Shown here one piece after another: positions 1 to 51,310 of a stretch of DNA of 64,000 nucleotides. Each line of letters opens with the position of its first letter. Position 1 is the first letter of the stretch. The stretch comes from a virus (Duplodnaviria; Caudoviricetes). The stretch is from IMG/VR virus record IMGVR_UViG_3300033061_001635, positions 111,134-175,133 of that record, one strand, 5' to 3'. Made by a program: the position numbers and the translations under genes. The notes beneath the pieces were generated by a model. That model saw nothing but the letters and a program-made list of their open reading frames with translations, was not told the DNA's origin and searched no databases.

Positions 1-3000
1 ATCAAAATCAAAAACCATTTCTTTAAATGGGCCGGTCGAGTTATTGTTTGGGAATATTTCTCCATACTTTTTAAGTAGTCCGCCGCCTGATAATTTCTGA
101 ACCATCTTATCATTCTTTGGTTCTGGTATTCCATATTGTGCTCTAAAATATTTTTGAAATTCTTCAACAGCCTTGCCTCTACTATTACTATCTATTGTTC
201 TTTTAACTTCTGTTGGAATATTAGGATCAATACCAAATATTTTTGCCGCTTTAGGTCCGATGCCCATTGGAAAGTCGATTGGACGAGTTCTTAAAGCATC
301 GTCCAATATGGTAGCATCTGCTGATCCAAAAATTTGTTCTAGTAAAGCCCCTTCAATATTTCCTTGTCCTAATGTTTCTCTTTGTTTTTTAGTTAATTCT
401 TTAGGAGTAATACCAAGAAGTTTTGATGCTCCTTGTACTATTTCTGCTGTTTGTCCACTAAGATAATCAATAACATTTTGGAATTCTGTTGGTAATCCTC
501 TTTGTACTATGGAGGCATTTATTGACCTGTCTTTGCCGGACGAATCGGTGCCAAGATTCCAAGTTTCTGGACCTAATAATCCAGTATATCCTAATGGATT
601 TAATCCTACTAAACCTAATTGTGTCGATGACAAAACAGCATTTGTTGTATCTTTTAATGCTGTTGCTTTTTGAGTTCCTTGTGATTGTTTAAATTTATCT
701 ATTAAGTAATCTCTTGTTCTTGTATAGTAAGCTAATTTATCTGCTTTAGTTTCTGGTCTAAATGCAGAATTCCAATATTTTAATTTGCCACCTTCAGCAG
801 TATCAGATACTGTTTTTCCTGAGAATGGGCCAAAACTTGAATCATTTGGTAATCTTTCAGATCCAAATCTTTTTAATATCTCTGTTCCTTGAGCTGGTAA
901 TATTCCAGAAGATTTTTTAACAGCTGTTTCTGTAGCTACTTTTGCTAAAATAGCTTGTTGTATAGCGGAAGATGGACCAGTTGGAGATGATGATGAATCA
1001 GTATCAAATCTTAGTCCATATTTTGCAGGATCGCTGGTTGCTAACTGTCTAAGAAGGCGATATGGTTCAAATGATTTTTTAGTTTCTAGTTTTTTCTTTT
1101 TATCTTTTAAGGACCGATAAAGCTCTAGTTGAGCAGCATACTCTTTGTCTGTCTCTGCTTTTTTATTATCTGCGCGAGTTATTCCTGTTGCGGCCAACTG
1201 CTGGTCTATACCGGATACTTCTTCTTTGTATGCTGCTTCTGCTTGTTCTATTAGTGTTGGCAATACGTTGGATCTGTTCTGTAGTTGAACCATATTGTTT
1301 TTTAATAATGAAAATACCGAGGGGGAAACAACTTGTTGAAGACCCTCTAGATTTCCATTTAATACTAAATCCCTAACTTGTGTTCCACTTATTCCGCCTG
1401 TTCTTTTTAGATTAGAGACTCCATATCCTGCTTTTTTATATTTCTCCATTTGCTTTTCTGTCTTGTCTGCAACAAAAGCCATGCTTCCTTCACCAGCTAA
1501 TGTAATCTGTCTACGACCATCCTTTTCTCCCATATCAAAAGCTAAAGGAACACTCATATCTCCAAATGCCTTTGGTAGAACAGAGGCCCCCTTAGATCCG
1601 AATCCTGCTTTGGCCAGTGCTAATCTAAAATCTTTATCAAATACTGCTGTTCTATAATTTTCAGAATCTACAGCCTCATCGGATCCGACTAATGCTATAA
1701 AGTCTTCATAGGGTATGCCAGCAGCTTTGGCTGCTTCCATCATAGATTCGTGACCTACTGTTGTTGGAGCAAATCCTCCCCAAGTTAATCCTATTTTTTT
1801 CTTAGTTGCTTCTACTAGTTCATTTCCTGTTTTACGACGTAATCCACCGTCGTCTTTTCGTCCTAATACTACTGATTTAGAACCTATTCTATCTTCTAAT
1901 AAAGCTTCTTCTTTTGCCGTGTCTAATGGAGCCCCTGTTGTGCTACCAGCTGTTCTACCAAATAATCCAACACCACTAACGTCCCTCATTGTTCTTTGTT
2001 TAAGAATTCTATCTTTTTCTTCTTTTGTAGTAGACGATAATGTATAAGCTCTATCTACTTCCTGTAACATACCCTCTAACTTATCCTGAGAAACTGTGCT
2101 TGTAAGCAACATAACTTCTGAAGCTTTAGTTATATCTTCTGGGGTTAGGATAGGGAAGCGATTTGTTTGTCGTAGTGTTCCGTTATCGTTGGATCCTCTT
2201 CCGGTAACAATACTACTTTTACCAGCTCCGGCCACGCCATATAGTGCTTTTAGAGAGTTTAAACTTTTTTCTTTTCTGGCTTTGATGGCTAGATCAGTTA
2301 AATACTCCGTATAATTTCTTGGTCCATCAACACCGGCTTTTTTCATAGCCTGTTCAATAACTTGGGCATTTGCTGGATCATTAATTACATCAAAATCAAT
2401 ATATCCTAAATTTCTTGTAACCTTACCACCATCTGTATATTGTTGTCTTTGAATTCCAGCACTACCTAATAATTCATTTAGAGTAGAGTCTAATATTCCC
2501 TCCATATTAGAATCTAGCATTGGTCGTTTTTGAATTAGAGTTGTTAAAAATTCTTCTTTACCATTATCTTCTGCTTTATTTATAACATCTTGCTTAACTC
2601 CGCCCTTTAATAGTAAGTCAGTAATTTTAGGATTTATTGGTCGATATTCACGAGCATTTTTCTTTTTTTCAGCTTCAAAATATAATGCTGATCCTTCTTT
2701 AGAAACTTCAGGATTGTCCGATCTTCCCGTTCTTATCGTATCTCTTCTTAAATTGCTTAATACGCTATTAAGCATGTTGTTTTTATAGCTACGACCATAT
2801 ACAACATCGGCGCTATTATATCCGCCATCTTTCTCTGTTAGAGCATCAAAAGCATCAGCCAATCCATCATTATCACCAGAGAATAATTGACTTACTCTAT
2901 TTCTATATTGATCAAAAGCGCCTGATGATTGTGTCCTTATTGAATTTAATAATTGATGTGTTAATTCATGATATAATGTATTTTTTTCTTGATTTGGGAA

Positions 3001-5988
3001 ATATCTGGTGCTACTTAAACCCACTGTTCCTCGTCCGGTAGTTTCGGTAATTTCTTTTTTAGCCGCCATTGCTGCTTTTCTAGCATAAGCTTGTTTATCT
3101 TTCACTTTAGATATTTGCATAGTTAATGCAGATTTTTCATCATAAGCCTTTTTAAATGCAGCATCATCAATTGAAAAAGATCCATCATCAAAAGTTTTTG
3201 TTGGCGTTTTCATTATCTTCTTAATTTCTTTTTCTTTTTCCTCCCATAATTTTTGATAGCCATATAGATCTTGTTCATCGGCCGTGGTGAACCCATACTG
3301 AGATAAATCTAACTTATCAAAATCTCTAGCGCCATAAGGATTTGCATAAAAAGTACCACGAGAACTAACGTTTTGTCCTACTCCACCAAAATCAATATTT
3401 TGTGGTAAAACTTTAGACAAATCCTGTTCTGGTAAACCTATATATTTAGCAAAATTTGCTAGATCGCCCACTAAATCATTTCGTCTAATTTTAGTCTTAA
3501 ACAAACTTTCAAATTTTTTGCGATCAAAAGCTTGTGACTTAAAATGTTCAGCAACTGCATTCTGATCAACATTTATTCTTTCATCTTTTGGATATTGATC
3601 CCACGCTAATGATACTTGTTCATCATTTAACTTCTTTTCCATTTCTTTAACATAAGCGTTCGTAATGCGCTTGGGAAATTTGGTTTGTCCTGTACCGAAT
3701 GGGGTTGATTCTGCTTTTCCTCCGGCCATGAATCTTTGAATTCTTCCTCCAAGATTTTTTTTATCAAACTTTTTTGGATCTTGTTCAATTAATCTTTTAT
3801 TCTGCTTACCCTCTGGTAATGACAGATACTCTGCCTTAGTTATAGTTTCTGCTCGCTTCGGTCCTGTACCAGAATATGAAAAACCTAATCCTTTATCTAT
3901 TAAGTTCTGTTTTAGATTATCGTCAACAAAAAGCGGTCTCCCACTACGTTCTTTATCTGTCTGTTGACTATATCCTTTAGTAAAATTCTCTGTTACATTT
4001 TTACCTTTTGTATATTGTGTTTCAGTTAATTTTTTTGCTTCAAGAGCAAGATTTTTTTTCCATTTTTGGTTACTTCTCATTTCAAATGTATCAACTCCGA
4101 CAAGTCTACTACTAGTATCATATGCCGAAGTTTTTGGTGTGAACTTTACTACTGGACTGTCTCCGTCGTAAACATGGTCAACAACCACATTTAATGGCTC
4201 TGGGGCTTTTCCTCCACCGCCAAATCTTTGTCTTTTATTTGATTTTCCTGCTCTTATACTTCCACCACCCCCATACTTATTCATATTATGAAGATTATCT
4301 GATCCTATAGTTTCAACAGCTTTCTTTCTTATAACAAATTCTCCTGGCTCTAACATTGCTGGTACAGTATCTCCACTGCCAGTACCAGGAACAACACCAC
4401 CTCGTGCAAATTTTCTTATAACTCCGCCATTAGCTTTACCATCTGGTCCTCTTTTAACTCCTGTGGTAAATCCTGTAGTAAATTCTGTTAATGCTTTAAA
4501 TCCCTTAAATGCTGCAAGAACTGCTAATGCTGGAAGAATTCCTTTAACGGCGTCTGCTACTTTTATCAAACCGCTAGTTAAAGATAATGCACCTCTAACT
4601 AAACTCTGAAATCCTTTAGATTGACCTATCTCACGAAATAGTGAGAAAAATTCTTCACGAACTTTGCTTATTTGATTTGCTAAACTAAGTTGTGCTGTAG
4701 CAGCATCTTTAGCCAGAGATGCCTGTCCTTGTTGTGCAACCTTTAATGCCTGCTGGGTCACAGTGAATTGTTGAATAAGAGGAATAACTTTGCCAATTTG
4801 ACGAAATCCACCAAGTTCTTCAACTATTCTGGAAAAATCTAAACTTCTAGGATCTATCTTGCCTAGTCCTTTGCTTAATAATTCAACGGCTTTATATGCT
4901 CCAACAAATTTACCTTCTGTGTCTGTTAGATTAACACCAAACTCTTTTAGCGCATCTATTGTTGTTCCTCTTTGAACACGAGTAAATATTGTCCGCAATC
5001 CAGTAGCAATAGTTTCAGCACTTTCACGACTAGTTGCTCTAATACTAGTAAATACCGAAATGAATTCATTTAAAGCGTCTTTTCCTTCGCTTACTCCTTT
5101 GCTCGCAGTAGCAAATACGCTACCTGTTCTTTGTACAGCCGTAATGATGTCGCTGGATTCTACTGCGAATCTTGCGGCAACAGCATTAACTGCTCCTAAT
5201 GATGCCTCCAAATCATTAGCGCTAATACCAAACTGTCTCATTATAGCAATACTGCCTTCGACAGTCTCATTCATATTATCGAATGATGGAGCTAAGCTAC
5301 TAAGAGCTAAAGCCTTTAGAGCTTTCTCAGTTTCTCTAGCACTCAAACCAGCCTGAGCTAATGTTGATGCTACTTGAGTTAACTCTTTAGAACTAACACC
5401 AAATTCTACAGCTAAATTAGTAATTTGAGATTGCAGTTTGGATAATCCAGCAGCAGATTCACCAGTAACTTGTTGTAGCTTTACAAGTTCTTTATCATAA
5501 TCAATAAAAGCTTGTATACCATTATTTATACTATTGGTTACGCCATATATAACGCTTGTAACAGCACTAAATGCAACGAATCTTCTAACTGCTAAACCAG
5601 CCTGTTTACCGAATTCCTGCATCTCTGTTGCGGCATTTTGCAATCCTCCAGATGTTGATGAGGATACTTTATTTAATTTAGCAATTGCTGACGAAGTTTG
5701 ATTAATTTGTTGAGGGACATTGTTAATTTTAACAGAATTTACGCTATTACCAAAAGCCTTTATTGCTGATGTGGCAGCATTGGCTGATTTGACAGTTGAG
5801 GCAAAATTAGCATTTAGAACTTTTAATGAAGACGATAATGCTGCAACATTTTTTGATGCTGCCGGATCAAGTTTAAACTGTACGTTTGCATTAAGAGTGC
5901 CAAGATCTTTTTTAATCTGAGCAGCTATTTGCTTAACGTTTGTTGGACCTTTAAGATTCAACTGTGCTGTTAGGTTAAAAGTTGCCAT
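1..5988 (-). CDS. Giant tape measure protein (TP901-type core) with C-terminal enzyme-like cargo domains; 3' end beyond the window
   Basis: ATG at 5988 (MATFNLTAQLNLKGP...). Every segment translated by hand was stop-free, and no minus-strand ORF closes in 1-5988 in the track. The core has TMP-like text (ETIATGLRTIFTR, LKEFGVNL, GGFRQIGKVIPLI) and lies downstream of tail tube and chaperone genes. Later motifs: YDGDS/RLVGVDTFE, HELTH, GVAGAGKS, GGFAPTTVGH/ISGTQVR. Confidence 0.9.
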   Translation of the reverse strand, partial: MATFNLTAQLNLKGPTNVKQIAAQIKKDLGTLNANVQFKLDPAASKNVAALSSSLKVLNANFASTVKSANAATSAIKAFGNSVNSVKINNVPQQINQTSSAIAKLNKVSSSTSGGLQNAATEMQEFGKQAGLAVRRFVAFSAVTSVIYGVTNSINNGIQAFIDYDKELVKLQQVTGESAAGLSKLQSQITNLAVEFGVSSKELTQVASTLAQAGLSARETEKALKALALSSLAPSFDNMNETVEGSIAIMRQFGISANDLEASLGAVNAVAARFAVESSDIITAVQRTGSVFATASKGVSEGKDALNEFISVFTSIRATSRESAETIATGLRTIFTRVQRGTTIDALKEFGVNLTDTEGKFVGAYKAVELLSKGLGKIDPRSLDFSRIVEELGGFRQIGKVIPLIQQFTVTQQALKVAQQGQASLAKDAATAQLSLANQISKVREEFFSLFREIGQSKGFQSLVRGALSLTSGLIKVADAVKGILPALAVLAAFKGFKALTEFTTGFTTGVKRGPDGKANGGVIRKFARGGVVPGTGSGDTVPAMLEPGEFVIRKKAVETIGSDNLHNMNKYGGGGSIRAGKSNKRQRFGGGGKAPEPLNVVVDHVYDGDSPVVKFTPKTSAYDTSSRLVGVDTFEMRSNQKWKKNLALEAKKLTETQYTKGKNVTENFTKGYSQQTDKERSGRPLFVDDNLKQNLIDKGLGFSYSGTGPKRAETITKAEYLSLPEGKQNKRLIEQDPKKFDKKNLGGRIQRFMAGGKAESTPFGTGQTKFPKRITNAYVKEMEKKLNDEQVSLAWDQYPKDERINVDQNAVAEHFKSQAFDRKKFESLFKTKIRRNDLVGDLANFAKYIGLPEQDLSKVLPQNIDFGGVGQNVSSRGTFYANPYGARDFDKLDLSQYGFTTADEQDLYGYQKLWEEKEKEIKKIMKTPTKTFDDGSFSIDDAAFKKAYDEKSALTMQISKVKDKQAYARKAAMAAKKEITETTGRGTVGLSSTRYFPNQEKNTLYHELTHQLLNSIRTQSSGAFDQYRNRVSQLFSGDNDGLADAFDALTEKDGGYNSADVVYGRSYKNNMLNSVLSNLRRDTIRTGRSDNPEVSKEGSALYFEAEKKKNAREYRPINPKITDLLLKGGVKQDVINKAEDNGKEEFLTTLIQKRPMLDSNMEGILDSTLNELLGSAGIQRQQYTDGGKVTRNLGYIDFDVINDPANAQVIEQAMKKAGVDGPRNYTEYLTDLAIKARKEKSLNSLKALYGVAGAGKSSIVTGRGSNDNGTLRQTNRFPILTPEDITKASEVMLLTSTVSQDKLEGMLQEVDRAYTLSSTTKEEKDRILKQRTMRDVSGVGLFGRTAGSTTGAPLDTAKEEALLEDRIGSKSVVLGRKDDGGLRRKTGNELVEATKKKIGLTWGGFAPTTVGHESMMEAAKAAGIPYEDFIALVGSDEAVDSENYRTAVFDKDFRLALAKAGFGSKGASVLPKAFGDMSVPLAFDMGEKDGRRQITLAGEGSMAFVADKTEKQMEKYKKAGYGVSNLKRTGGISGTQVRDLVLNGNLEGLQQVVSPSVFSLLKNNMVQLQNRSNVLPTLIEQAEAAYKEEVSGIDQQLAATGITRADNKKAETDKEYAAQLELYRSLKDKKKKLETKKSFEPYRLLRQLATSDPAKYGLRFDTDSSSSPTGPSSAIQQAILAKVATETAVKKSSGILPAQGTEILKRFGSERLPNDSSFGPFSGKTVSDTAEGGKLKYWNSAFRPETKADKLAYYTRTRDYLIDKFKQSQGTQKATALKDTTNAVLSSTQLGLVGLNPLGYTGLLGPETWNLGTDSSGKDRSINASIVQRGLPTEFQNVIDYLSGQTAEIVQGASKLLGITPKELTKKQRETLGQGNIEGALLEQIFGSADATILDDALRTRPIDFPMGIGPKAAKIFGIDPNIPTEVKRTIDSNSRGKAVEEFQKYFRAQYGIPEPKNDKMVQKLSGGGLLKKYGEIFPNNNSTGPFKEMVFDFD

Positions 5989-6089: not shown

Positions 6090-6998
6090 TTATGAACTAA
6101 CGGGTTCTGTGGATTCTGCAACAGTGCTTTTGGGTGGTTCAGAAACTGGGGGCTCTTTTGCTGTCTCTGTTTGTGCTGCTGTTGGTTCATCTTTTTTGTC
6201 TTCTTCTAAAATAATTGGATTTCCATTATCATCAAGGAACGGCTGAGGGTCAACCAGATAGTCTCCATCAGAATTTACCTTGTTGCCATATTTATCAACA
6301 AAATTCCCTTCTTCATCTATGAATCTGCCACTTTCATCTACTAGCCTACCTTCAGCATCAACAAGTCTACCTTTTTTATCAACAAGTCGCAATTTATCAT
6401 CAACAAATTTAAATTTCTTTAAGAATTTGTTTTCTGGCAGATTGCTTTCATAGTCATTATCCAATCCATATAACATATTAGCCAAATTTTGCGCTCCTAA
6501 CAAACCAACCTGATCGGTTGACCTATTAAGATAATCTTCCATATTATTAAAGTATGGTTGTTTAGTATCATTATACACCACACAAACACTAACCAAATAA
6601 TTAAACCTAGCATTATCAGCTTGACCTTCAGCACTATGATTATCTAAACTAGTTCTAACACTGATTAGATCTCGTATTTCATCTCTAATGCCCTTCATTT
6701 TAATAGCTAGGTCTTTGGCTTCATTTAAACTAAATCCACCCTTTGCTAGTCTTTTTTCACCGTCTAAAAGTTCTTTTTGTAAAGTGGTGAATTTAGCCTG
6801 TTTCTCATCATTCCATAAACCTTGATCTTCTAAAAGATCGTCTAACTTTGCTCTTACAACACTTTTGCTTTTTATAGCATCAGTAAAAGCTTGATTATAG
6901 ACTTTTTGTGCTTCTCTTTGATCATTTAATGATGGTGTCTTGACAACAAATTCTTTTTCTGTACCGTCTATAGTAACCTTAAAATTTTTAGTTTTCAT
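6090..6998 (-). CDS. Putative tail assembly chaperone
   Basis: 302 aa, charged and helical, immediately upstream of the TMP; call is from synteny. Confidence 0.55.
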   Translation of the reverse strand: MKTKNFKVTIDGTEKEFVVKTPSLNDQREAQKVYNQAFTDAIKSKSVVRAKLDDLLEDQGLWNDEKQAKFTTLQKELLDGEKRLAKGGFSLNEAKDLAIKMKGIRDEIRDLISVRTSLDNHSAEGQADNARFNYLVSVCVVYNDTKQPYFNNMEDYLNRSTDQVGLLGAQNLANMLYGLDNDYESNLPENKFLKKFKFVDDKLRLVDKKGRLVDAEGRLVDESGRFIDEEGNFVDKYGNKVNSDGDYLVDPQPFLDDNGNPIILEEDKKDEPTAAQTETAKEPPVSEPPKSTVAESTEPVSS

Positions 6999-7281
6999 AT
7001 TTATCTCCTATTTCCTTATTATTAAAATTATATGTTTGTTTAGTTTTATACGATCTATATAACATAGATGATAGAGTCTCCAATGCTAATCTTATTTGTT
7101 TATTTCCATTATTCAAAATGGAATTTCTGGTATACTCCCAAAGGTCTATATATTCTTGCTGATCTGGTCCTGGTTCTTCCCACAAATGACCAAAAGATTG
7201 TTCGAATCTTGCTAATGAACCTATCATAGTTGTTTTTAATCGTGTTTCGATTTCAGTAATTAGTTGTTGTTGATAATCCAT
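6988..7281 (-). CDS. Hypothetical protein (tail module)
   Basis: 97-aa ORF tightly coupled with its neighbours. Confidence 0.6.
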   Translation of the reverse strand: MDYQQQLITEIETRLKTTMIGSLARFEQSFGHLWEEPGPDQQEYIDLWEYTRNSILNNGNKQIRLALETLSSMLYRSYKTKQTYNFNNKEIGDKYEN

Positions 7282-23076: not shown

Positions 23077-26000
23077 TTAACCATAATTTTGAGAGAAACT
23101 ACCATACCAGAAAGAGCCATCACTAATAAAACTATATATATCAACTTTACTAGCAATAATAGTTGCTGTTGGAATAGCACTATCGGCCCATCTTACTCCG
23201 CTGAAAGATGCAGTATAGTTTCCACTGCCGCTATTTAAGAACATGCTAAAGCTCTTGCCAGCAGTTGCTGTGGGCATAGTGAATGTGCAGTTACCCGTTA
23301 GTGTACAAGTTTGAACAGTTCCACTAGCCAAGCTAATAGTTTTACTAGTACTACTATTGCCAATAGCTACAACACTTTCTGTGAAACTATCAAAGGTAAG
23401 ATTACCATTAACATTAACTAACCCATTTAGTTCTATACTTGCTGAAGGATCACATGTTAAGATGATAGAGGATCCACCTAAGCCGATATCGCCTCCACAT
23501 CCGATTCCAATATTATCACTTAAACCAATACTAGCACCATCACTAGAATATATACTGGAACAAGTTATATTTCCATTAAAAAAAGCACTTCCATTAATAT
23601 TAGTATAAGAACTATTTAAATTAGTAGTATCATTATTACTATTTCCAATATAAATAGTTCCATTACCCTCAGTAGAACTAATTATTGATATGGGATCTTG
23701 AAAAGTATTTAAACTAATACCTTCATTAGTAATACAGCTTATATGACAACCTTCTGATGGAGCAGCTGGTTCACTACGAACTCTAAAACCACCCAGTACA
23801 TCTAATTTAGTTGATGGAGTTGCTGTACCAATTCCAACATTTCCTATACTATCTATTCTTAATCTTTCAACTCCGCTGGTGGTAATACCAAAAGTATTTG
23901 TCTCTGGGCTAAATAATCCAGTATCAGGGTCGTTAATAAATGATAAATATTCTATTGCTAATGAAGATAAATTTGAGATAGATAAATATACTTCTTGTCT
24001 TGTATAAGAGAATCCTCCACCTCCACCCTGAATCCAACTAGAAAATTTAATTTTCCAATATCTATTAGTTGGAACATGTTTCATTATTAATTCAGCATTA
24101 GGTAAACTATATCCTAAATTACCTCCAACAGTATTATATAAAGTATCATATGTTCTAGTTTTGATATTAGTAATGTTTGACCATCCATCATTATTCCATA
24201 AGGTATTTGATGGACTGAGGTAATTAATGCCATTCCAACCTCCTTCTACCGCTAGATTATATATTCCCCCACCATTTCCTCTGGTTATTACTAGTGCTCC
24301 GGCTATGATAGTATCATAATTAGTAGCATAGGATCCATCTGGATGAGTATATGATACTAAAATTCCAGTTGATACTATTGTTCCAACCTTAAGACTGTCC
24401 ATAAAACCAGAGCCAGACACATGTAATGGATACTGAGGATTAGATAAGCCTATTCCAATATTATTACCGCTTTGATAAATTACGCTATTATTTAATCCGC
24501 TACCTCCAGTTCCAAACTTACTTAAGTAATTAGCAGTTCCTACCGGTAGTAGTCCGCTTACGCTACTATTGAAGTTTGTTATATCATTTGATGTATGAGT
24601 ATGGCCACTAATACTAACACCAGTACCATTTACATTAAGACTGTTAGTGAAATTACCACTATTAGCTGTTATCAACCCACTAACTTGTAATCTACCGTTT
24701 GGAGAAGAAGTTCCAACACCAACATTTCCTTCTACAATCAAACCATTTGTTGGAGGAGTTAAATTATAATTAGCGCCAATAGAAACACCGCCACTAATAG
24801 CTACTAAACCGCTAGGGGCAGTAAAACCAACACCAAATGTCCCACCGCCAATACAAACAAAGCTTCTATTAGCTCCTCCACCAGCAAGAGAGTTGCTAAA
24901 CTGATATCGTACAACCGAGTAGTCTGTTGAATAACCATAAAAGTAGCTATTTGAACTAACTGCTCCCCTAAAAATTGAATCTCCTCCTGTAACATCTAAT
25001 TTGAATCCTACTTGTGGAGTATTACCAATACCAACATTTCCAATAGGATCAATATATAATCTATTAACACCGCTGGTTGTTAGACTAAGAGCATTAGTTG
25101 CTGGATTGTACAAGCCCGCATTAGTATTTCCAATAAATGAATAAGATGGAGAAGATGCTGATCCAGAACCGGCTAAAATACCGCTAGTAAAAGTACCGCT
25201 ATTAGTAACATTTATTCCATTACTAAATTGCGCAGTAGTTCCACTGAAAGTTAGTCCACCGCCATTGCCGTCTTGAGAAATACTACCATAAGATGACAAT
25301 TCGATAGCAGTAGCTGAACTACCGTTTCCAAGTCTTATTTTTGCTGCTTGAATTCTAAATGCTGTATTGGTAGGTGAATTAAAGTATAATGCTCCATTAT
25401 CTGCTTGAATTGATCCACCATAACCATCAGCATTTTCTAATCTTATACCTTGAGGATTTACAGACGAGCCACTAATGTGAATTAAATCTAATGGAGAATT
25501 CGTTCCAACGCCTATTCCAGAAGAAAAGATACCAGTACCAATTACATGAAGTTGTCCACTTGGAGTGGTTGTTCCAATACCAACTCCCGAACTAGTTACT
25601 CTCATAACTTCCGAGTTCATCGGAGTGAATTTAATATATTGATTTGCAAATGTTTGAGAAGAATTATGACCAATAGTTATGGGACCATTTCCAGCATTCA
25701 AAACAACATCAGCACTTTGGTTTCCAACTTTAACATACGCATTTGCAGCATCTAAATATAGATTACCATTCGTATCTGCTCTAACTTTAAGAGAAGTATC
25801 TGATGATGCTGATGTAGACTTAAAATATACTGTCCCTAAATTATTTCCAGTACCTCTAACATAAACATCACCAGCAACATCAAGATGTCCGCTTGGAGTA
25901 GCAGTTCCTATTCCAAATCTTCCTCTATTATCAAAAGTCGCAACTTCTGAATAATAATTATAGATTTTTAATCTACCAGAAGATGATACGTCTATATACT

Positions 26001-26907
26001 GATCACCTGCTCCTTTACCTCTATAACCTATAATCATTGATCTAGTATTATTATCAAGAGTTATCCAACTAGCGCCATCATTGTAGGAACGAATTGAAGC
26101 ATTGGTGCCTTCACCATTATTAGTTGGATTTAATATAGTAAAACCATTTGGCAAAAACATTTTACTAAAAGTATCAATACCAATAACGTCAGTACCATTT
26201 CTAGATATAAAAAAACTATCATCAAAATTGCCAGGACCACCAATTCTAAAATCTATTCTAGGATTATTAGTACTAGCTCCACTATTTAATCTCAATAAAG
26301 AACCAAATGCTCTTTCATTTACATCAGGGAAAAGTCCACTAGCTCCACTAATATGAACAAAAGTATGAGGAGTTGCAGCGTAAGATATCCAGTTTGGAAA
26401 ACCGCTAATGCCTACTCCTAGTTTATTACTAAATATTCCTGTGCCTATAACATGTAATTGACCACTTGGTGTAATAGTTCCAATACCAACATTAGTTCCA
26501 TTATCAAAAATGATTCCACTACTAATACTATTAGATCCGCTCCATCGTGTCAAATATCCACTAGTTCCAACTCCAGTAACAGGATTAGTAAGAGCTAATT
26601 GGTAAGGAGTTAATAATCCACTAACACTACTGTTAAAGTCAGTAATATTTGATGATACGTGAGTATGGCCGCTAAAGCTTACTCCGGTACCGTTTACTTG
26701 TAAAGATTGAGTAAAATTACCACTAGCTGGAGTTATACTAGTTCCACTAATACTAGTAACTCCAAGATTAATTATAGAATTACTACTATTTTTAGTATAT
26801 AATTTACCATCAACTATATTAATAGCTAATTCACCCTGGGCTAATCCTGTAACAGCAGGAGCAACACCGCCGGTGCTACTCCTTTTATGTTGTATAATAT
26901 TTGCCAT
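23077..26907 (-). CDS. Long tail fibre protein
   Basis: 1276 aa; N-terminal IQHKRS..G..P...LA.GELAIN..DGKLY, multiple GNVGIGT..P...L.V repeats, C-terminal TLTGNCTFT.P...GKSF..VRW domain. Confidence 0.75.
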   Translation of the reverse strand: MANIIQHKRSSTGGVAPAVTGLAQGELAINIVDGKLYTKNSSNSIINLGVTSISGTSITPASGNFTQSLQVNGTGVSFSGHTHVSSNITDFNSSVSGLLTPYQLALTNPVTGVGTSGYLTRWSGSNSISSGIIFDNGTNVGIGTITPSGQLHVIGTGIFSNKLGVGISGFPNWISYAATPHTFVHISGASGLFPDVNERAFGSLLRLNSGASTNNPRIDFRIGGPGNFDDSFFISRNGTDVIGIDTFSKMFLPNGFTILNPTNNGEGTNASIRSYNDGASWITLDNNTRSMIIGYRGKGAGDQYIDVSSSGRLKIYNYYSEVATFDNRGRFGIGTATPSGHLDVAGDVYVRGTGNNLGTVYFKSTSASSDTSLKVRADTNGNLYLDAANAYVKVGNQSADVVLNAGNGPITIGHNSSQTFANQYIKFTPMNSEVMRVTSSGVGIGTTTPSGQLHVIGTGIFSSGIGVGTNSPLDLIHISGSSVNPQGIRLENADGYGGSIQADNGALYFNSPTNTAFRIQAAKIRLGNGSSATAIELSSYGSISQDGNGGGLTFSGTTAQFSNGINVTNSGTFTSGILAGSGSASSPSYSFIGNTNAGLYNPATNALSLTTSGVNRLYIDPIGNVGIGNTPQVGFKLDVTGGDSIFRGAVSSNSYFYGYSTDYSVVRYQFSNSLAGGGANRSFVCIGGGTFGVGFTAPSGLVAISGGVSIGANYNLTPPTNGLIVEGNVGVGTSSPNGRLQVSGLITANSGNFTNSLNVNGTGVSISGHTHTSNDITNFNSSVSGLLPVGTANYLSKFGTGGSGLNNSVIYQSGNNIGIGLSNPQYPLHVSGSGFMDSLKVGTIVSTGILVSYTHPDGSYATNYDTIIAGALVITRGNGGGIYNLAVEGGWNGINYLSPSNTLWNNDGWSNITNIKTRTYDTLYNTVGGNLGYSLPNAELIMKHVPTNRYWKIKFSSWIQGGGGGFSYTRQEVYLSISNLSSLAIEYLSFINDPDTGLFSPETNTFGITTSGVERLRIDSIGNVGIGTATPSTKLDVLGGFRVRSEPAAPSEGCHISCITNEGISLNTFQDPISIISSTEGNGTIYIGNSNNDTTNLNSSYTNINGSAFFNGNITCSSIYSSDGASIGLSDNIGIGCGGDIGLGGSSIILTCDPSASIELNGLVNVNGNLTFDSFTESVVAIGNSSTSKTISLASGTVQTCTLTGNCTFTMPTATAGKSFSMFLNSGSGNYTASFSGVRWADSAIPTATIIASKVDIYSFISDGSFWYGSFSQNYG

Positions 26908-26924
26908 TTAATCTCTAACTATTT

Positions 26925-29912
26925 TTAGAATGTTCCACCATCTAATGTGCAATCAACAATAGCAGCACATACTGTTGCTGATGTTAAATATGCTGATGCT
27001 GCTGATGTAACAGCTGTAACATGTCCAAATGCATCTACTGTTATGCTAGCAATACCGTTGCTTCCTTGTGCTCCGTTAAGACTTGATGTTGAACTATGGG
27101 CTACTGTTATGCTTCCTGCTCCATTAGTAATAGCTATTCCAGTGCCTTGTGTCAAAGTGGCTTTAGTTAAAGTATTACCAGTAGAGTTACCAATTAATAA
27201 TTGACCATTAGTATATGTTGTATCTCCAGTTCCACCATTAGCAACAGGTAGTGTTCCACTAACATGAGTTGTTAAACCAACTTTGCCCCATGAAGGAGCA
27301 GTTGAAACTCCACCGGCCAATAATACGTTGCCAGTAGCAACATCAGCTAATTTGGCTAAACTAGTTGTGGTATCAGCATATAATAAATCTCCAACAGCAT
27401 ATGAACTTTGGCCAGTTCCACCCTTGGTGGCAGATATATTTGTAGCACTCCAGGTTCCAGCAGTTACTGTTCCCAATGTAGTTAAATTAGTAGAACCAGC
27501 CCAACTGCTTAGTGCTGTATTTTCAACACTACCTAAACCAATATCGCTTTTAATTTGACTAGGAGTTCTATGAGCCAGAGCTTGTGCTGCACTAGAAGGA
27601 TCGCTTGTGAATACTGGAAAGTATAATCCTGACGAGGCTGTTGAAGCCATCAAAACAGACAGTCCAGAATTTAACACTGGTCTATCAGATAGAGTCTTTA
27701 CTCCAGCAATAGTTTGGGCTCCAGTAGTATAAACTCCGTTTGTTACAGTAGCAGCATTACCGTCAATACTTGTTATACCAGTTAATACTAGAGATGAGCT
27801 ACTTCTATTTATAGCAACACTGGTTGTTCCTATGAACATAGTTTGACCACTGGCCGCAGCTCCAATAGCTGTTCTAAAATCAGTATCGCTCAAAGACGAT
27901 ACGCTATTATCAGCATTGATTCTAGTAAAAGATATTGTTCCAGGATTAGTTAAACTTATTAAATTTTGACCAACTGTTGTGGCAGAGAACCCGGCATCTT
28001 TGATAATCTTACCAGTTGCTCCATTAAATAATGCAAAACGATTATCTGTTGACGAAGCTGGTCCCACAACAGCTCCATCAATATTTGTTTGAGCAACAGT
28101 CCATGTGCTATTAACATTACCAAGAGCATCAGCAACACCTATAACTAAATCTCCAATTTCGCAAACCACACCAGCATATGTTCCTGTTGCAACCACCCTA
28201 TAGGTCCAACCAGCACTAATTGTTCCTGTTGGAAGAGTTCCTGGCGTACCTCCTGCTCCAATAGTTCCTTTAAAAATCATAGCATCATTAGCAGCTAATA
28301 AACTATCAACATAAGTTATAACAGCATCTGCCCTAGGAATAGCAGTAGAGCTACTAGATAGAGTAGTTTGTACGCTATATCCGTCAGATAAAGCATCTCC
28401 TGTTGTTCCATTCCATGCTGGAATATTGCCATTTGTTGAAGATGCTAACTTTTTAATTTGAGCATTATCAGTAACATTGCTTAATCCTACTTTAGACTTG
28501 GCTAAACTACTTATCCATGCTGGATCAGCATATGAACCAGATGTATACACTCCGCTAGTTACTGTTCCAGCATTACCGTCTATACTAATACCTGTCAATG
28601 TTTGAGATGCTGAAGATCTATTGATAGCAAATAATGTAGTTCCAATATACATGTTTTGATTAGTAGCAGCCTTACCATCTATTTGTGTTTGAATAGCGCT
28701 AGTAACACCTTTTACATATGCTAATTCTGTTAATGATGGATATGTAGCTGTAGATAACGATGTAACGTTTTTGTTAGCGTCAAAACTAGCGATTGTACTA
28801 GCTGTTTGATTAGGTATATTTAATCCACTAGAAAAAATACCGCTACCAATAACGTGTAGTTGACCGCTTGGTGTATTTGTTCCAATTCCAACATTTCCAT
28901 CATTTCTAGCAAATAAAATACTATTACTATTAGAATTAACAATATTTAAAACACCAAGACTTGAATCTGATGTTGATCCTTTTATGTTTAATCTGTGAGT
29001 AATACCAACAAATGAACCTATACCCATATTGCCGTCATTTCTGATATCCAAAATTGCACCATATGACGAATCTAAGATTTTGCAAGCAGATGCTCCATTA
29101 GAGGTATCTGGAGTCAGGATATAAAGTGTAGGATTTAAAGATAATGGATTAGCCCCAAGACTTAATCCACTACTAAATAATTTTCTATCACTAATAGTTT
29201 GAACACCAGTTGTTCTTACAACAGTACTATCAACAGCTATAGCATCAGCACTAACGGTTATGCCGTCACCTTGTCCGATATTAAATGTTCTATCAGCACT
29301 AAGATCAAGAGCAGCCGATCCAGCTAAGCCGCTTCCAGGAGTGATAGTTCTACTAGTATAAACTCCACTAGTTACAGTACCAGCATTTCCAGTAACGCTT
29401 ATATTCCATGTTCCAGTAGCATTAGCTCCACCCACAGATGGAGATCCAATACTATTATATGAAATTGTTTTTGCTGAACTTCCATTAAAAGTTGATCCAC
29501 TGTTATCTCCAGCCCCACCATTATTAATAGTTAAAGAGTTAGTAACACTACCAGCACTTCCTGTTGTATTTTGATTAAGAGTAGGAACATCAGACGCTAT
29601 AATATTTCCCATAAGAACATTCGTTCCATTACCTCTCATGAAATATCCAGAAGTAACAGTGCCACCAGCTAAATTATTTCTTGATGTTTGAGTATTATTT
29701 AAGTCTGATAAATTATTATTTTTATTTAAATAGGCTCCACTACCAGCAATGGGTATAACTTGGGTGGCTGTTCCTCCTGCTCCGCCAGTGCCATATCCAT
29801 AATAAAGAATATTATCTCCTTCATTATATGCTAACTCTGCATTGGCTAATCCAGACGGTGCTCCAGCGCCAACACCAGATGCACGACGTTTGATTCTTAT
29901 TGTATTAGCCAT
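26925..29912 (-). CDS. Tail fibre protein
   Basis: 995 aa, G/T/S/A-rich; IRIKRR...P..LA.AELAYNE N-terminus, GNAGTVT and LPVANGGTG repeats, C-terminal LDGGTF. Confidence 0.75.
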   Translation of the reverse strand: MANTIRIKRRASGVGAGAPSGLANAELAYNEGDNILYYGYGTGGAGGTATQVIPIAGSGAYLNKNNNLSDLNNTQTSRNNLAGGTVTSGYFMRGNGTNVLMGNIIASDVPTLNQNTTGSAGSVTNSLTINNGGAGDNSGSTFNGSSAKTISYNSIGSPSVGGANATGTWNISVTGNAGTVTSGVYTSRTITPGSGLAGSAALDLSADRTFNIGQGDGITVSADAIAVDSTVVRTTGVQTISDRKLFSSGLSLGANPLSLNPTLYILTPDTSNGASACKILDSSYGAILDIRNDGNMGIGSFVGITHRLNIKGSTSDSSLGVLNIVNSNSNSILFARNDGNVGIGTNTPSGQLHVIGSGIFSSGLNIPNQTASTIASFDANKNVTSLSTATYPSLTELAYVKGVTSAIQTQIDGKAATNQNMYIGTTLFAINRSSASQTLTGISIDGNAGTVTSGVYTSGSYADPAWISSLAKSKVGLSNVTDNAQIKKLASSTNGNIPAWNGTTGDALSDGYSVQTTLSSSSTAIPRADAVITYVDSLLAANDAMIFKGTIGAGGTPGTLPTGTISAGWTYRVVATGTYAGVVCEIGDLVIGVADALGNVNSTWTVAQTNIDGAVVGPASSTDNRFALFNGATGKIIKDAGFSATTVGQNLISLTNPGTISFTRINADNSVSSLSDTDFRTAIGAAASGQTMFIGTTSVAINRSSSSLVLTGITSIDGNAATVTNGVYTTGAQTIAGVKTLSDRPVLNSGLSVLMASTASSGLYFPVFTSDPSSAAQALAHRTPSQIKSDIGLGSVENTALSSWAGSTNLTTLGTVTAGTWSATNISATKGGTGQSSYAVGDLLYADTTTSLAKLADVATGNVLLAGGVSTAPSWGKVGLTTHVSGTLPVANGGTGDTTYTNGQLLIGNSTGNTLTKATLTQGTGIAITNGAGSITVAHSSTSSLNGAQGSNGIASITVDAFGHVTAVTSAASAYLTSATVCAAIVDCTLDGGTF

Positions 29913-29965
29913 TTTTTCCCCTTATTACGAAAAATATAAAAATTTAGTTAAATATATATACACTT

Positions 29966-30232
29966 TTAACAATTTCCACCATCAAGAATATCAGAAGTAT
30001 TAATTGTAGAATAATTAGCCACCAATAGAGAACCACTATTAGGAACAGAAACTGTACCACTAGCATATATTCTTAATATACTAGGATTTAATGAACTTTT
30101 AAAATTAAGACTATTATCATTTAAAGCTTCAATAGTTATAGGAATATTTCCAGAACCAGTAAATTCAATTCTAGGATATCCAGAAGTTCCAGTTTCTGGA
30201 AAAATACCAATTGTTTTATCAGCATTAGCCAT
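29966..30232 (-). CDS. Small fibre-associated protein
   Basis: 88 aa ending LDGGNC, like neighbouring fibres ending DGG. Confidence 0.55.
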   Translation of the reverse strand: MANADKTIGIFPETGTSGYPRIEFTGSGNIPITIEALNDNSLNFKSSLNPSILRIYASGTVSVPNSGSLLVANYSTINTSDILDGGNC

Positions 30233-30233
30233 A

Positions 30234-32729
30234 TTATTGCTCCGGTATTAATTTAGGAACATCTTTACGAATTCCTGTGAAGCTCCAATAAAAGTTAAAC
30301 GGACCGCCACTCTTACTTCTATACCCCTTAATGATAAATTTATTATTTTTTAAATCTATTTTATCCACATAAAGCATTTTATGATGACCATAATTAGTTA
30401 ATTGAATACTAACATCTTCTTCATGAATTAAATACTTTAAATAATCTGGTAAAAGTATTTCACATATTCCATTCTTTAATTTGTCTTTTCCTGTGAGTCT
30501 TACTCCGTGATATGGACTTTCTAATGATCCATATTGTAAAGATGAATATTTTGAATCTGGATCTGGGTGTTGGATTTTAAAGTATTTTTCTTTTGCATAT
30601 ACTCCTTCAGCAAATGTTACATCTTTATTAGCTTCTATCTTAATTACAGACTGTCCATTATCTAAGGTATAGTATAAATTACTAGATCCTACTGTAGATG
30701 TTCCTGCTATGTCTTTATTCAGAATAAATTTTTTGTTATTATTAGTAACATTAACAGATATCCCATTAGTCAATACTGTTCCATTAGTAAATCCAGAAGC
30801 CCTAACGAATCGCACATTACCAAAAGAAGTACTAGGAATAGGCGTTTCTACTTTATATATGCCATTATAAACAGGATAATCAAAATTAGTAAATAATACC
30901 AAATCTCCTACAGATACATTAGCCTGAGTTTCCCAAATACTAATTAGAAACCCTGGTGTCCAGCTAGTATTAGACAGTATAGTAGTGGCCGGTAAAGAAA
31001 CACTGCTAATATGTTTTACTGTTTTATTGGCTGCGGTATCAACAATATTAATGCCACTAGAATTAATAGTCATATTAAAAGTATTTAAAAAACTATTATT
31101 AACCCTAATCACACCTTCCTTGACTAATAAATCATTAACTGTTATCTTTGAGGAAGTAATATTATTATGATTATATAAGTTATAGGAATAAGCATTTTGT
31201 ACAGTCAAGTCGCCGGATCCTAAAAGTGCCCAACCAGGCTTATATCCTGTGGGACTAAACGAATTAGAATAAATTCCATCGGCACCTCCTGGGCAATCAG
31301 CCGCTGTTGGTGCCCCATAAATATGATCATTACAACAGTACCAGTTTTCTGGAACAGATCCCATGGGACATTGTGTAGTAAAATTTAATAATGATGTATA
31401 ATATTGATTTTCAAATTTAACCACATCAGTTTTATTATAAAGAGCATTTTGATTCCATGCTGGTATATCATTCTTCCCTAATAATGTAATATCTTTAAAA
31501 TTATTTAATCCATTAGTATTTAATCCACTAGAGAATAATCCGCTACCATTAACATGAAGATTTGCTGTTGGAGATGTTGTTCCTATGCCAACATTTCCTT
31601 CTACAATCAAACCATTAGTTGGGGGAGTTAAATTATAGTTTGATCCTATAGATGCTCCACCGCTAATAGCAACTAAGCCGCTAGGGGCGGTAAATCCGAC
31701 TCCAAATGTCCCACCACCATTGCACACCCAACTACGATTAGCGCCGCCACCAGCAAGAGAGTTACTAAACTGATATCGTACAGCTGAATAATCAGTTGCA
31801 TAACCGAGAAAAATATTATTTGATTGAACACTTCCTCTAATAATAGTACTTCCAGCAACATCTAACTTGAATCCCGCTTGTGGAGAAGTACCAATACCAA
31901 CGTTACCTATATCATTCACTCGTAATCTTTCAACACCACTAGTGCTAACTGCGATAGTATTTGTTTCTGGACTAAATAATCCAGTATCAATGTCTCCAGT
32001 AAACTCAAAAGACGGATTGGCTGCACTACCAGATCCTGCTATAAAAAATCCTGTTGCTAAAACATCTCCGGCAACGTGAAGTTTACTAGACGGAGAACTT
32101 GTTCCAATACCAACATTACCATCAGATGTAATCCTCATTTTTTCGGTTAGTGATGGAGATGCTATTGTTCCATTATTTGTATAAAAAACTAAATTGCCTA
32201 GTGTTCCAACTCCACCGGCGGCTTCATTCCATGATCCATTTTTTAACATGCCAATTTTTGCACCAATTCTTTGTACTACTCCAACAGTTGTATTAAATGA
32301 ACACCCATCAAATCTAATACTATATTCAGTATTAGCATCATTTGCTCCATTGAATCCTGCAAATCCTCCATCAATATTTAATACTTCTAATGATCCTGTT
32401 GCTGATGGCGCTATGTATCTACCACTTCCAGCAACAGTAAGTTTGTACGTGCTAGGATTAGTTCCTATGCCAACATTAGTTCCATTATCATAAATTAAAC
32501 TATTAGTAACGCCCTGAGAACTATTAAACTTGGGCAAATATCCACTAGTTCCTGTTCCAGCCAAACCAACGTAGTTGAGTTCGCTCCAGGCTGTTGTTCC
32601 ATCTCCTATTTTTAATCTTAATGTATCAACCTCAAATGCTGGTTCGCCACTAGCTAGAATCTGAGCATTATTAGCAATCCACTGAGACAAAGTGCCTTTT
32701 CTAAATTGAATATTATTTTGTCTTGGCAT
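30234..32729 (-). CDS. Tail fibre with Mtd-N-like anchor and C-terminal chaperone-like domain
   Basis: IQFRKGT..W.....LASGEPAFE.DT..LKIGDG..AW..L.Y; GNVGIGT repeats; C-terminal KYFKIQHP...LQYGSLESP. Confidence 0.75.
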   Translation of the reverse strand: MPRQNNIQFRKGTLSQWIANNAQILASGEPAFEVDTLRLKIGDGTTAWSELNYVGLAGTGTSGYLPKFNSSQGVTNSLIYDNGTNVGIGTNPSTYKLTVAGSGRYIAPSATGSLEVLNIDGGFAGFNGANDANTEYSIRFDGCSFNTTVGVVQRIGAKIGMLKNGSWNEAAGGVGTLGNLVFYTNNGTIASPSLTEKMRITSDGNVGIGTSSPSSKLHVAGDVLATGFFIAGSGSAANPSFEFTGDIDTGLFSPETNTIAVSTSGVERLRVNDIGNVGIGTSPQAGFKLDVAGSTIIRGSVQSNNIFLGYATDYSAVRYQFSNSLAGGGANRSWVCNGGGTFGVGFTAPSGLVAISGGASIGSNYNLTPPTNGLIVEGNVGIGTTSPTANLHVNGSGLFSSGLNTNGLNNFKDITLLGKNDIPAWNQNALYNKTDVVKFENQYYTSLLNFTTQCPMGSVPENWYCCNDHIYGAPTAADCPGGADGIYSNSFSPTGYKPGWALLGSGDLTVQNAYSYNLYNHNNITSSKITVNDLLVKEGVIRVNNSFLNTFNMTINSSGINIVDTAANKTVKHISSVSLPATTILSNTSWTPGFLISIWETQANVSVGDLVLFTNFDYPVYNGIYKVETPIPSTSFGNVRFVRASGFTNGTVLTNGISVNVTNNNKKFILNKDIAGTSTVGSSNLYYTLDNGQSVIKIEANKDVTFAEGVYAKEKYFKIQHPDPDSKYSSLQYGSLESPYHGVRLTGKDKLKNGICEILLPDYLKYLIHEEDVSIQLTNYGHHKMLYVDKIDLKNNKFIIKGYRSKSGGPFNFYWSFTGIRKDVPKLIPEQ

Positions 32730-32803
32730 ATTTTAACCATATTATGAGTTATCCTATTATAGAATCTAATACTATAATATTGACTATATTAACTTTGTCC
32801 AGC

Positions 32804-35119: not shown

Positions 35120-35145
35120 ATTATATTCCTTAAATTATAAAGATA

Positions 35146-49324: not shown

Positions 49325-49402
49325 TAAAGTGTTGTGGCGTAAGACTTTACGACGAGTTATGGCCGCAAAAGTTGTCATAAACTCTTATGGGATAAGGACT
49401 TA
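49325..49402. repeat. 78-bp double-dyad element, copy 1
   Basis: TAAAGTGTT-N7-AAGACTTTA / 28 bp / TAAACTCTT-N7-AAGGACTTA. Confidence 0.9.
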
Positions 49403-49556
49403 CGTTAAATGACCCTAGCAAATGCTATGCCAAAAAATAAAGAATAATATATTCTCTAAAAAAAATAAAAAAAATAAAAGATTTCGCTTGCAACCTAAAG
49501 ATATGTCTGTATAATGTCGATATAAGAAGTAAGACAGAAGAGAAAAGGAAAAGAAA

Positions 49557-49775
49557 ATGATCAGCAGTTTTTCAGTTGGCGATTGGGTTGAGAGTGATGA
49601 AGAATATGGGATTGATTGTGAGAACTATCCGGTTTATCGAGTCGAGTCGGTGAACGACGATAATACCCTTACTGTACGCGACGAGGAAGGCAACGTTGGT
49701 CGGCTCAACGCCGACTATGTTTCTCATGCTGACATCGATTACATTCCCGGTCTTGACGATGGAGAGGGAATCTAA
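49557..49775 (+). CDS. Hypothetical acidic early protein (SH3-like beta pattern)
   Basis: 72 aa downstream of a promoter and AGGA RBS. Confidence 0.6.
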   Translation: MISSFSVGDWVESDEEYGIDCENYPVYRVESVNDDNTLTVRDEEGNVGRLNADYVSHADIDYIPGLDDGEGI

Positions 49776-49831
49776 TCTCCCCAGTAAGGGAACGAAAAAG
49801 ATTCTATAGAATACTCTCACAAGGAAAGAAA

Positions 49832-50152
49832 ATGAATAGTTTTGCAAGATTGAATCGGATTGGAATGGACGCAAATGCTACTAAGGATAAGGTAAGATAC
49901 TTGCGAGAAAAATATAATCTTGGATATGATATGCAACCAAAGGAACAAAAAATGTCCGTTTCTGAAATGATTTGCAAACTAGAATCTCATGGCCTGATCG
50001 TGCAGCGGTTGGAGCACGATAATGGTACGCTACACGTTGACGGCTATCATCCTCCCCATTGTAAGGGGCTGCCCGATTGGCTGTATGATTGCCCCGGTTG
50101 GGGGGTATCGTCATGCGGGGCTTCTAGGGTTTTCATGTTCAAGGTGGGCTAA
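49832..50152 (+). CDS. Hypothetical early protein
   Basis: 106-aa ORF with AAGGA RBS; start uncertain. Confidence 0.5.
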   Translation: MNSFARLNRIGMDANATKDKVRYLREKYNLGYDMQPKEQKMSVSEMICKLESHGLIVQRLEHDNGTLHVDGYHPPHCKGLPDWLYDCPGWGVSSCGASRVFMFKVG

Positions 50153-51308: not shown

Positions 51309-51310
51309 CC

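Follow-up and report, generated by a model that had tools for sequence, protein, structure and literature searches.

A giant tape measure protein with putative enzyme cassettes that are gained, lost and reordered between relatives of a siphovirus-like phage

Lysin domains are carried by several phage tape measure proteins (TMPs), namely SPbeta YomI, the TMP of mycobacteriophage TM4 and T5 pb2. TMPs fill the tail tube's lumen, are expelled when the tail tip opens and form a conduit across the envelope (PMC12617516). Once the lambda tail is assembled, its TMP, gpH, is cut in the Gly-rich C-terminal region and gives up about 14 kDa, and the shortened form, gpH*, is expelled and forms a periplasmic channel (PMC12617516). 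Another TMP, the 5,002-amino acid (aa) gp96 of Thermus phage P23-45, bears an active virion RNA polymerase at its N-terminus, belongs to a tail of 800 nm, and has been proposed to occupy a 4.5-nm channel as folded domains strung out in an elongated chain (bioRxiv 10.1101/2022.12.01.518664). A further group, the polyvalent proteins, has been predicted to be delivered together with the DNA and to be cut by embedded zincin-like HExxH peptidases, in a study in which tape measure proteins are never brought up (Iyer et al., 2017, PMC5512222). Thus, both enzymes within TMPs (lysins, the P23-45 RNA polymerase) and injected polyvalent proteins are already known. Here we describe a giant TMP gene that begins within a 64,000-nucleotide stretch (hereafter the window, meaning this whole stretch), positions 111134–175133 of the 175,133-bp IMG/VR virus record IMGVR_UViG_3300033061_001635, which CheckV rates as complete. 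The gene product is, with high confidence, a TMP with embedded enzyme-like cassettes that are exchangeable between relatives.

The product resembles gp96 of P23-45, likewise a TMP of giant size from a long-tailed phage, in having in its chain an enzyme that is proposed to be cytoplasm-acting, to lie folded but stretched out in the tube lumen, and to work at or after ejection. Unlike gp96, which has a single N-terminal enzyme, it starts with a TP901-type core and contains six or more unrelated cassettes in three internal slots, which are set off by recurring delimiters and swapped from one relative to another. General Pfam scans of its segments, made without a dedicated profile, showed no RNA polymerase family. 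An earlier reading made from the letters of the window alone (the sequence-only reading) had stated that TMPs usually carry only cell-wall hydrolases; the virion RNA polymerase fused to the P23-45 TMP is a published exception. The lysin-bearing TMPs share with the giant TMP the embedding of enzyme domains in the chain but attack peptidoglycan, whereas the recognizable domains of the giant TMP would act on nucleic acids or nucleotides. With the polyvalent proteins it shares the accumulation of many unrelated catalytic domains, with HExxH sites interspersed, in one giant protein of a mobile element, and two or more unrelated catalytic domains can be named in it: a putative SNase and a HIGH-type nucleotidyltransferase, with P-loop, HAD and HExxH cassettes at the level of motifs. 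The carriers of the polyvalent proteins are MuF, N4-like RNA polymerase, ArdC-N and similar domains, and their HExxH domains are zincin-like; searches matched no zincin to the HExxH cassettes of the giant TMP, and none of the Pfam families for MuF, ArdC-N, N4-type RNA polymerase, methylases or SNF2 appeared in any segment of it at E ≤ 1. A search of the available literature revealed no TMP with many unrelated, swappable cassettes between repeated modules of the gpH type, and a literature search with the motif string returned nothing relevant.

Within the window the gene occupies positions 1..5988 of the minus strand; its 1,996 codons there form an open frame that begins with the ATG at 5988 and leaves the window at position 1. 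In the full record the same frame is one open reading frame (ORF) of 5,986 codons (genome 99161–117121, minus strand) that extends 11,973 nt past window position 1 and has no internal stop in 17,958 nt. The single long minus-strand frame running off the window, as described in the sequence-only reading, was therefore real, and the actual protein is three times the size of the part seen there. A stop or frameshift between the TMP core and the proposed cargo, which that reading had named as the observation that would overturn it, was looked for and found neither here nor in relatives. A word search retrieved 34 giant relatives of 3,836–7,574 aa, and the identical protein was present on three contigs. 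An exhaustive HMMER search with residues 1187–1965 gave 105 matches, all of them to giant proteins or fragments. When a core-first alignment was used as query in a pattern scan of IMG/VR, at least 358 confirmed loci encoded relatives, and in most of the 80 loci that were kept the frame was open to the end of the 10 kb retrieved; a single-sequence scan of IMG/VR recovered just one locus. Across the family, lengths are continuous from 1,535 to 7,574 aa. Among 50,697 phage records, neither megablast of the giant-gene region nor tblastn of the block 1187–1965 matched any deposited phage, and deposited phages hold distant relatives of the TMP core and the Gly-rich module only. We also considered whether the gene could be the product of a chimeric assembly or of read-through across several genes. 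Nothing was found in favor of this; the record is a metagenomic contig without end repeats. The uninterrupted 17,958 nt, the threefold recovery of the identical protein, and the hundreds of independent contigs with equally long open frames and the same neighbors all speak against it. To the extent that sequence data allow, this rules out an assembly artefact, the probability of which we regard as negligible.

The N-terminal part of the chain identifies it as a TMP. PF10145 (PhageMin_Tail) matched residues 188–380 (window 4849–5427) with 77.9 bits against a cut-off of 33.2, and in a search of the whole genome the giant gene was the sole match to this family, at 85.9 bits. Five PHROG tape measure families matched residues ~20–500 with E values from 1e-12 to 1e-23. 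The TP901-type core proposed for the first ~520 aa (residues 1–520, window 4429..5988; this and all other features of the gene are on the minus strand) is thus confirmed. Both TerL and the TMP core have their nearest deposited relatives among Bacillus siphophages (Slash group, SPbeta), with identities of 21–25%; the core is 25% identical to SPbeta YomI. Judged by these sequence matches, the giant protein is the single tail TMP of an uncultured 175-kb phage of siphovirus-like character.

TMP-type elements were not confined to the N-terminal core. A Gly-rich module of ~55 residues, with the consensus G-G-x-I-[RY]-x-[FY]-A-x-G-G ... D-T-V-P-A-M-L-T-P-G-E-F-V-x-N ... L-x-x-[IL]-N, is present in five copies, in which P-G-E-F-V is found at residues 548, 2663, 3984, 5096, and 5770. 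Copy 1 (residues 515–595, window 4204..4446) reads GG-x-I-R-K-F-A-x-G-G ... D-T-V-P-A-M-L-x-P-G-E-F-V ... L-H-x-M-N, and copies 2–5 lie off the window. A profile of the module matched mycobacteriophage Douge gp16 twice (960–1030 and 1411–1458, E 4.6e-11), lambda gpH at 727–790 (E 3.7e-5) and the JBD30 TMP at 1014–1068 (E 0.016). By tblastn the module was found in 156 deposited phage genomes, and the features under the listed matches were mostly tape measure or tail genes; a Pfam scan of the module was empty at threshold, the EF-hand-like signals being sub-threshold. Since 14 kDa counted back from residue 853 would place the gpH cut near residue 725, the module of gpH lies in the region where that protein is cleaved. 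Lambda gpH has one module and no enzyme domain, whereas the giant TMP has five modules and about ten short delimiters.

Between copies 2 and 3 of the module, residues 2,700–3,960 form a block of ~1,300 residues that is rich in helix formers, poor in aromatic residues, contains a hydrophobic stretch and is conserved in nearly all relatives. Hydrophobic stretches were located at residues 473–501, 3108–3126, and 4642–4666. Material that is not of TMP type fills three slots, at residues 596–2,640, 4,010–5,060, and 5,140–5,740; short family members (1,565–3,700 aa) retain the scaffold and have small slots. Conservation across the family is high in the scaffold and in the block 1,187–1,965, and low elsewhere. 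From the recurring modules and the helical block along the chain it follows, at the level of sequence, that TMP-type material reaches the C-terminus and that the cassettes are interleaved with it rather than appended after the core. The arrangement of a core followed by cargo in the sequence-only reading hence has to be redrawn: core and cargo motifs are real, but the cassettes are interspersed among TMP elements, which keep recurring up to the C-terminus. In addition, EF-hand-like Ca2+-binding loops (sub-threshold in Pfam) were noted at residues 4010–4060 and ~5150–5165, off the window and immediately behind the third and fourth module copies; through them, unfolding or activation could be made to depend on the difference in Ca2+ between the outside and the cytoplasm.

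The cassettes are bounded by short delimiters. The motif [FY]-x-x-G-G occurs 15 times in the protein, compared with 2.8 ± 1.65 times in 2,000 shuffles (shuffle maximum 9), and is found at the edges of conserved blocks at residues 753, 1184, 2123, 2402, and 2643, together with L-S-G-G-G at 1966. In alignments with 178 relatives, 48% of 987 internal homology breakpoints fell within 25 residues of a delimiter, while random delimiter sets subjected to the same test gave 15 ± 6% with a maximum of 36%. Individual events could be read directly. P0003, the closest relative, shares 97% identity across residues 1–758 and is missing exactly residues 759–1186, the segment between the delimiter F-M-A-G-G (residues 753–757, window 3718..3732), at the upstream edge of an HExxH cassette that we call MP1, and the delimiter Y-T-D-G-G (residues 1184–1188, window 2425..2439), at the downstream edge of MP1 and the start of a conserved enzyme block. 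At the junction P0003 has one hybrid delimiter, Q-K-F-A-V-G-G-K, and continues with the sequence that follows Y-T-D-G-G-K in the giant protein. In the same manner, residues 1971–2645 are missing from P0011 at the delimiter L-S-G-G-G (residues 1966–1970, window 79..93), the edge from which this relative is without the next 675 residues. Other relatives have the same cassette in a different order. Relatives thus gain, lose, and reorder cassettes at the delimiters. A crude census that broke 179 proteins into 1,624 inter-delimiter segments yielded 506 similarity clusters, 374 of them singletons; it conveys scale only, many of the input proteins being truncated.

The motifs that had been listed for the cargo were all located at the places given in the sequence-only reading, and are invariant or nearly so in 10–31 relatives; the fold and function read into them fared less evenly. 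The assignment that stood best is the HIGH-type nucleotidyltransferase at residues 1397–1600 (window 1189..1800), with T-x-G-H at 1410–1413 and I-S-x-T-x-x-R at 1533–1539; conservation of G-G-F-A-P-x-T-x-G-H and of I-S-G-T-x-V-R-D extends to 19 relatives. A profile search against the PDB retrieved 3gmi_A (UPF0348 MJ0951, HIGH_NTase1) with an E value of 3.8e-6 and both motifs covered, followed weakly by NMNAT, NadD, NadR, TagD, and PPAT. On the 19 members, Pfam reported PF16581 in 16 and PF01467 in six, all scoring under the curated thresholds (17.7 where 21 is required, and 22.2 where 26.7 is required), and in the ESM Atlas the domain scored 0.93 to viral CTP_transf_like (PF01467) clusters of ~190 aa. 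A HIGH nucleotidyltransferase fold is therefore supported by the 3gmi_A match and by the conservation of both motifs, as far as profile comparisons go. Immediately before it, residues 1187–1390 (window 1819..2430) appear to form a small P-loop domain with the Walker A sequence G-V-A-G-A-G-K-S at 1251–1258 (window 2215–2238), whose K1257 is invariant in relatives, and a conserved R-x-x-R-D downstream. Searches with this domain gave weak matches at the level of Walker A only, so the Walker A of the earlier kinase assignment was borne out and nothing beyond it argued for a kinase; the name kinase goes further than the motif. A HIGH nucleotidyltransferase adjoining a P-loop domain, with T/H-x-G-H and I-S-x-T-x-x-R, is also the arrangement of NadR and of the NARP3 enzyme Bas30_86 (PDB 9x6f; PMC13464706). 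In NadR, unlike the giant TMP, the two domains are in the opposite order; the comparison with 9x6f (E 0.021) and 6gye (E 0.29) was weak and covered the HIGH motif only, and 3gmi, the best match to the giant TMP domain, is of the UPF0348/TmcAL-type HIGH_NTase1 family, in which the chemistry differs from that of NadR.

A putative SNase-like cassette occupies residues 597–716 (window 3841..4200), where DGDS and R-L-V-G-V-D-T-F-E provide the equivalents of SNase D21, R35, D40, and E43. The corresponding residues of the cassette, D15, R33, D38, and E41, are the sole invariant acidic or basic positions in seven relatives that are 21–28% identical to the segment. When scanned in isolation, residues 597–716 scored 21.2 bits against PF00565 (cut-off 21, E 4e-4), this segment being the only one of 7 relatives to reach the cut-off, and a PDB profile search with the segment recovered no SNase. 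The SNase fold is marginally supported by these comparisons: the motifs and the narrow Pfam match favor the nuclease proposed earlier, but the PDB search does not.

The HExxH cassette MP1 covers residues 759–1186 (window 2431..3714), with H-E-L-T-H at 1007–1011 (window 2956–2970) and an E-D-x-G-K-E-E-F helix at ~1140–1150. Both Y-H-E-x-T-H-Q-L and the downstream acidic helix are invariant in 13 relatives. The AlphaFold2 model of MP1 (pLDDT 88.8, pTM 0.84) is compact and mostly helical, and is not an extended coil. Two further HExxH sites, at residues 2257 and 4899 (off the window, where unassigned regions are also found), bring the total in the giant protein to three. The best-conserved part of the chain is block B, residues 1681–1968 (window 85..948), a candidate PD-(D/E)xK-like domain with G-N-I-E-G ... 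R-P-I-D-F-P ... P-T-E-V-K-R-T, in which 10 relatives show no variation at I-E-G, P-I-D, and E-V-K, and PID...EVK spans residues 1903–1929 (window ~280–200). It is followed by a HAD-like cassette at residues 1971–2126, of which window positions 1..78 form the start; motif I, F-D-F-D-D-T-L, begins at residue 1992 across the window edge, and four HAD motifs (DxDxT, [ST]-A-R, K, I-D-D) are conserved in 18 relatives. The P-loop, HExxH, block B, and HAD-like assignments are made at the level of conserved motifs.

Taking these features together, we propose that the giant TMP would fill the lumen of a very long tail as folded beads on a string and, like lambda gpH* and other TMPs, would precede the DNA on the way out once the tip of the tail opens. 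The expelled protein would bring its cassettes into the envelope and the cytoplasm of the new host. The delimiters and the Gly-rich modules may serve as flexible joints and probably as cutting sites that free the cassettes, and the cutting agent might be either the embedded HExxH domains or the activity that cuts gpH. Freed or still tethered, the cassettes would act on host or phage nucleic acids and on nucleotide pools before phage genes are expressed. As a whole, a modular giant TMP with delivered enzymes is the explanation that we favor, with moderate confidence. By analogy with the systems described above, delivery of the cassettes and their function in the new host seem somewhat probable to us, and the co-injection of cytoplasm-acting effectors before transcription, which the sequence-only reading had put forward, is plausible. 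Cutting at the delimiters, again by analogy, is a more tentative proposal that we would not count on. The most far-reaching version would make the TMP a programmable injection cartridge in a widespread clade of large long-tailed phages, with a conserved ruler and channel scaffold and exchangeable effector enzymes, where a Gly-Gly 'cut here' code related to the maturation site of lambda gpH frees the enzymes in the new host for nuclease, nucleotide-modifying and peptidase action prior to transcription; this version we consider rather unlikely as a complete statement.

Several observations weigh against the delivery of active enzymes. The confident MP1 model gave no zincin or other significant match in the PDB (Foldseek), VIA wide, ESM Atlas, or BFVD; the match lists were dominated by a long helical hairpin (model residues 91–175), and the absence of structural matches makes no statement on whether the fold is new. 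The PDB profile search with MP1 and the Pfam scans of its relatives were likewise empty. Of the HExxH metallopeptidase proposed earlier, the invariant motif stands and the zincin fold does not, and the peptidase role is putative, with the conserved HExxH motif and a confident model as what speaks for it. The AlphaFold2 model of block B was of low confidence (pLDDT 57.7) and its Foldseek search was empty; the PDB profile search with the block was insignificant, and the ESM Atlas search was uninformative and yielded no match. Here too the invariant motif was where it had been seen, the fold found no match, and the PD-(D/E)xK identity is at present a lead from the motif. The HAD-like cassette had no significant HMM match, its best PDB matches to HAD proteins having E values of 0.15–1.2, and a profile search for stand-alone relatives returned fragments only. 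No stand-alone cellular homolog of the block 1187–1965 was found among 1.84 billion representatives by exhaustive HMMER search, and because of this its substrates are not readable from homologs. The Gly-rich module as a candidate cut site is a lead drawn from lambda, where the cut is unmapped to a residue. A chain of ~650 kDa also has a considerable volume. By our own estimate three such chains need ~200 nm of a 4-nm lumen when fully packed, and realistically about twice that, so that three to six copies would call for a tube lumen of several hundred nm; a tail of this length is therefore predicted, and such a tail is unobserved for the clade. Finally, that the giant TMP lies in the tail, is ejected, enters the cytoplasm and is cleaved is in each case our inference.

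The cassettes might instead constitute a toolkit for breaching the envelope, acting in the periplasm or the cell wall while the TMP forms its channel, and clearing the path or protecting the DNA, as a wider equivalent of the lysin domains in other TMPs. SNase is classically a secreted, Ca2+-dependent nuclease, and together with the EF-hand-like loops (~4018–4056 and ~5150–5165, sub-threshold in Pfam) it suits periplasmic action equally well. The three HExxH domains would fit the same role, and it is established that TMPs can carry peptidoglycan hydrolases and that gpH* acts as a channel in the periplasm (PMC12617516). However, the most conserved cassette is the P-loop domain with the HIGH nucleotidyltransferase, which would need nucleoside triphosphates, and these are cytoplasmic; moreover, Pfam scans of the segments revealed no lysozyme, transglycosylase, or M23 family in any of them. 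We therefore regard an envelope-directed role as unlikely, if less so than the explanations that follow.

A purely structural role is somewhat less probable still. On this account the whole chain is a very long ruler that sets an extreme tail length, the globular inserts are spacers or plugs of the lumen, and the enzyme motifs are relics. In P23-45, the length of a TMP is seen to scale up to about 800 nm, the lengths in the family form a continuum, and several cassettes are without an assignable fold. Against relics stands the invariance of the catalytic residues among relatives that are only 30–55% identical overall, which argues for selection on function rather than decay. MP1, in addition, is predicted to fold as a compact domain (pTM 0.84), and if every residue were part of the ruler, the turnover of cassettes between relatives as close as 97% identity would shift tail length by tens of nm at once. 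The remaining explanation, that the enzymes do their work in the producer cell or while the tail is being assembled (for example by processing the TMP itself, modifying tail components or serving late-infection metabolism) and are mere passengers in the virion, draws on the processing of lambda gpH during assembly by an unknown activity and on the embedded HExxH domains, which could be assembly-time self-processing peptidases (PMC5512222). It leaves the covalent link of nuclease, nucleotidyltransferase, and phosphatase-type modules to the first protein to exit unexplained, since free-standing late genes would serve equally; to us it appears very improbable.

The genomic setting of the giant gene agrees gene for gene in order with that of a relative. 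The structural module on the minus strand runs from terminase, portal, and capsid through five fibre-like genes and ten genes without a family to the giant gene, directly downstream of which comes a protein of 1,172 aa that shows fn3 and minor-tail signals, followed by other large proteins. No sheath family was matched in the genome search, which is weak evidence on the tail type, and no PHROG or Pfam family was found for the ten genes upstream and for most genes downstream; because of this the type of tail could not be fixed from the neighborhood. The fibre genes that precede the TMP had suggested a podovirus or an internal protein, an interpretation that was dropped, since TerL and the TMP core are siphophage-like and the Gly-rich module matches siphophage TMPs. 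The five fibre-like genes themselves (window 23077–36606, minus strand) are consecutive, large (486–1,276 aa) and match tail-fibre or tailspike PHROGs; several of them have a common T7-fibre-like N-terminal anchor, and their position between capsid and tail genes is unusual for a siphovirus-like module. Directly upstream of the TMP gene (window 6090–7281, minus strand), a 97-aa ORF (6988–7281) overlaps a 302-aa ORF in the +1 frame (6090–6998) by 11 nt. This site is the usual place of tail assembly chaperones with a programmed frameshift. The lengths of both ORFs are conserved in a relative, and no family was detected for either. Downstream of the giant gene, genome 67776–99129 holds very large minus-strand genes (1,172, 1,461, 874, 2,163, and 2,542 aa). 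A scan of nine ORFs at genome 81926–99129, which lay outside the 2,163- and 2,542-aa genes, gave almost no family matches. These large genes presumably encode the tail tip and fibres, and other giant virion proteins may be modular too.

Elsewhere in the window, a 14-kb stretch (49325–62817) has a G+C content of 44%, compared with ~33% in the rest of the genome, and hardly any ORF of more than 100 aa. It contains at least 14 copies of a 78-nt element, made of two dyads around a GC-rich GGCCGC core and spaced 520–1,900 nt apart, several of which are followed by a sigma-70-like TTGACA-N17-TATAAT. The stretch resembles an early region built from short cassettes that have a terminator or insulator and a promoter of their own. 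A match to the Pistol ribozyme (window 60997–61059, plus strand; 52.4 bits against a gathering score of 34.5) lies in this repeat-rich region, ~180 nt upstream of a pair of tRNA genes. Seven tRNA genes are encoded on the plus strand toward the end of the record (window 55763–55836, 61242–61391, and 63677–63990), for Glu, Arg-TCT, Asp, Thr, Gln, and Asn, and a Ser-like tRNA with the anticodon ACT.

If the cassettes of the giant TMP are delivered as we propose, siphophage tails would be injectors of protein as well as conduits for DNA. The payload would be recombinable and would evolve by cassette exchange in the way of polymorphic toxins or polyvalent proteins, so that phage counter-defence and host take-over would gain a layer that precedes transcription. 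Such a role would also explain TMP genes that are far longer than plausible rulers, and might give a general meaning to the 50-year-old observation of gpH cleavage in lambda. The family holds many uncharacterized and strongly conserved enzyme folds, and its architecture points to a natural scaffold with which phage tails might be loaded with foreign proteins.

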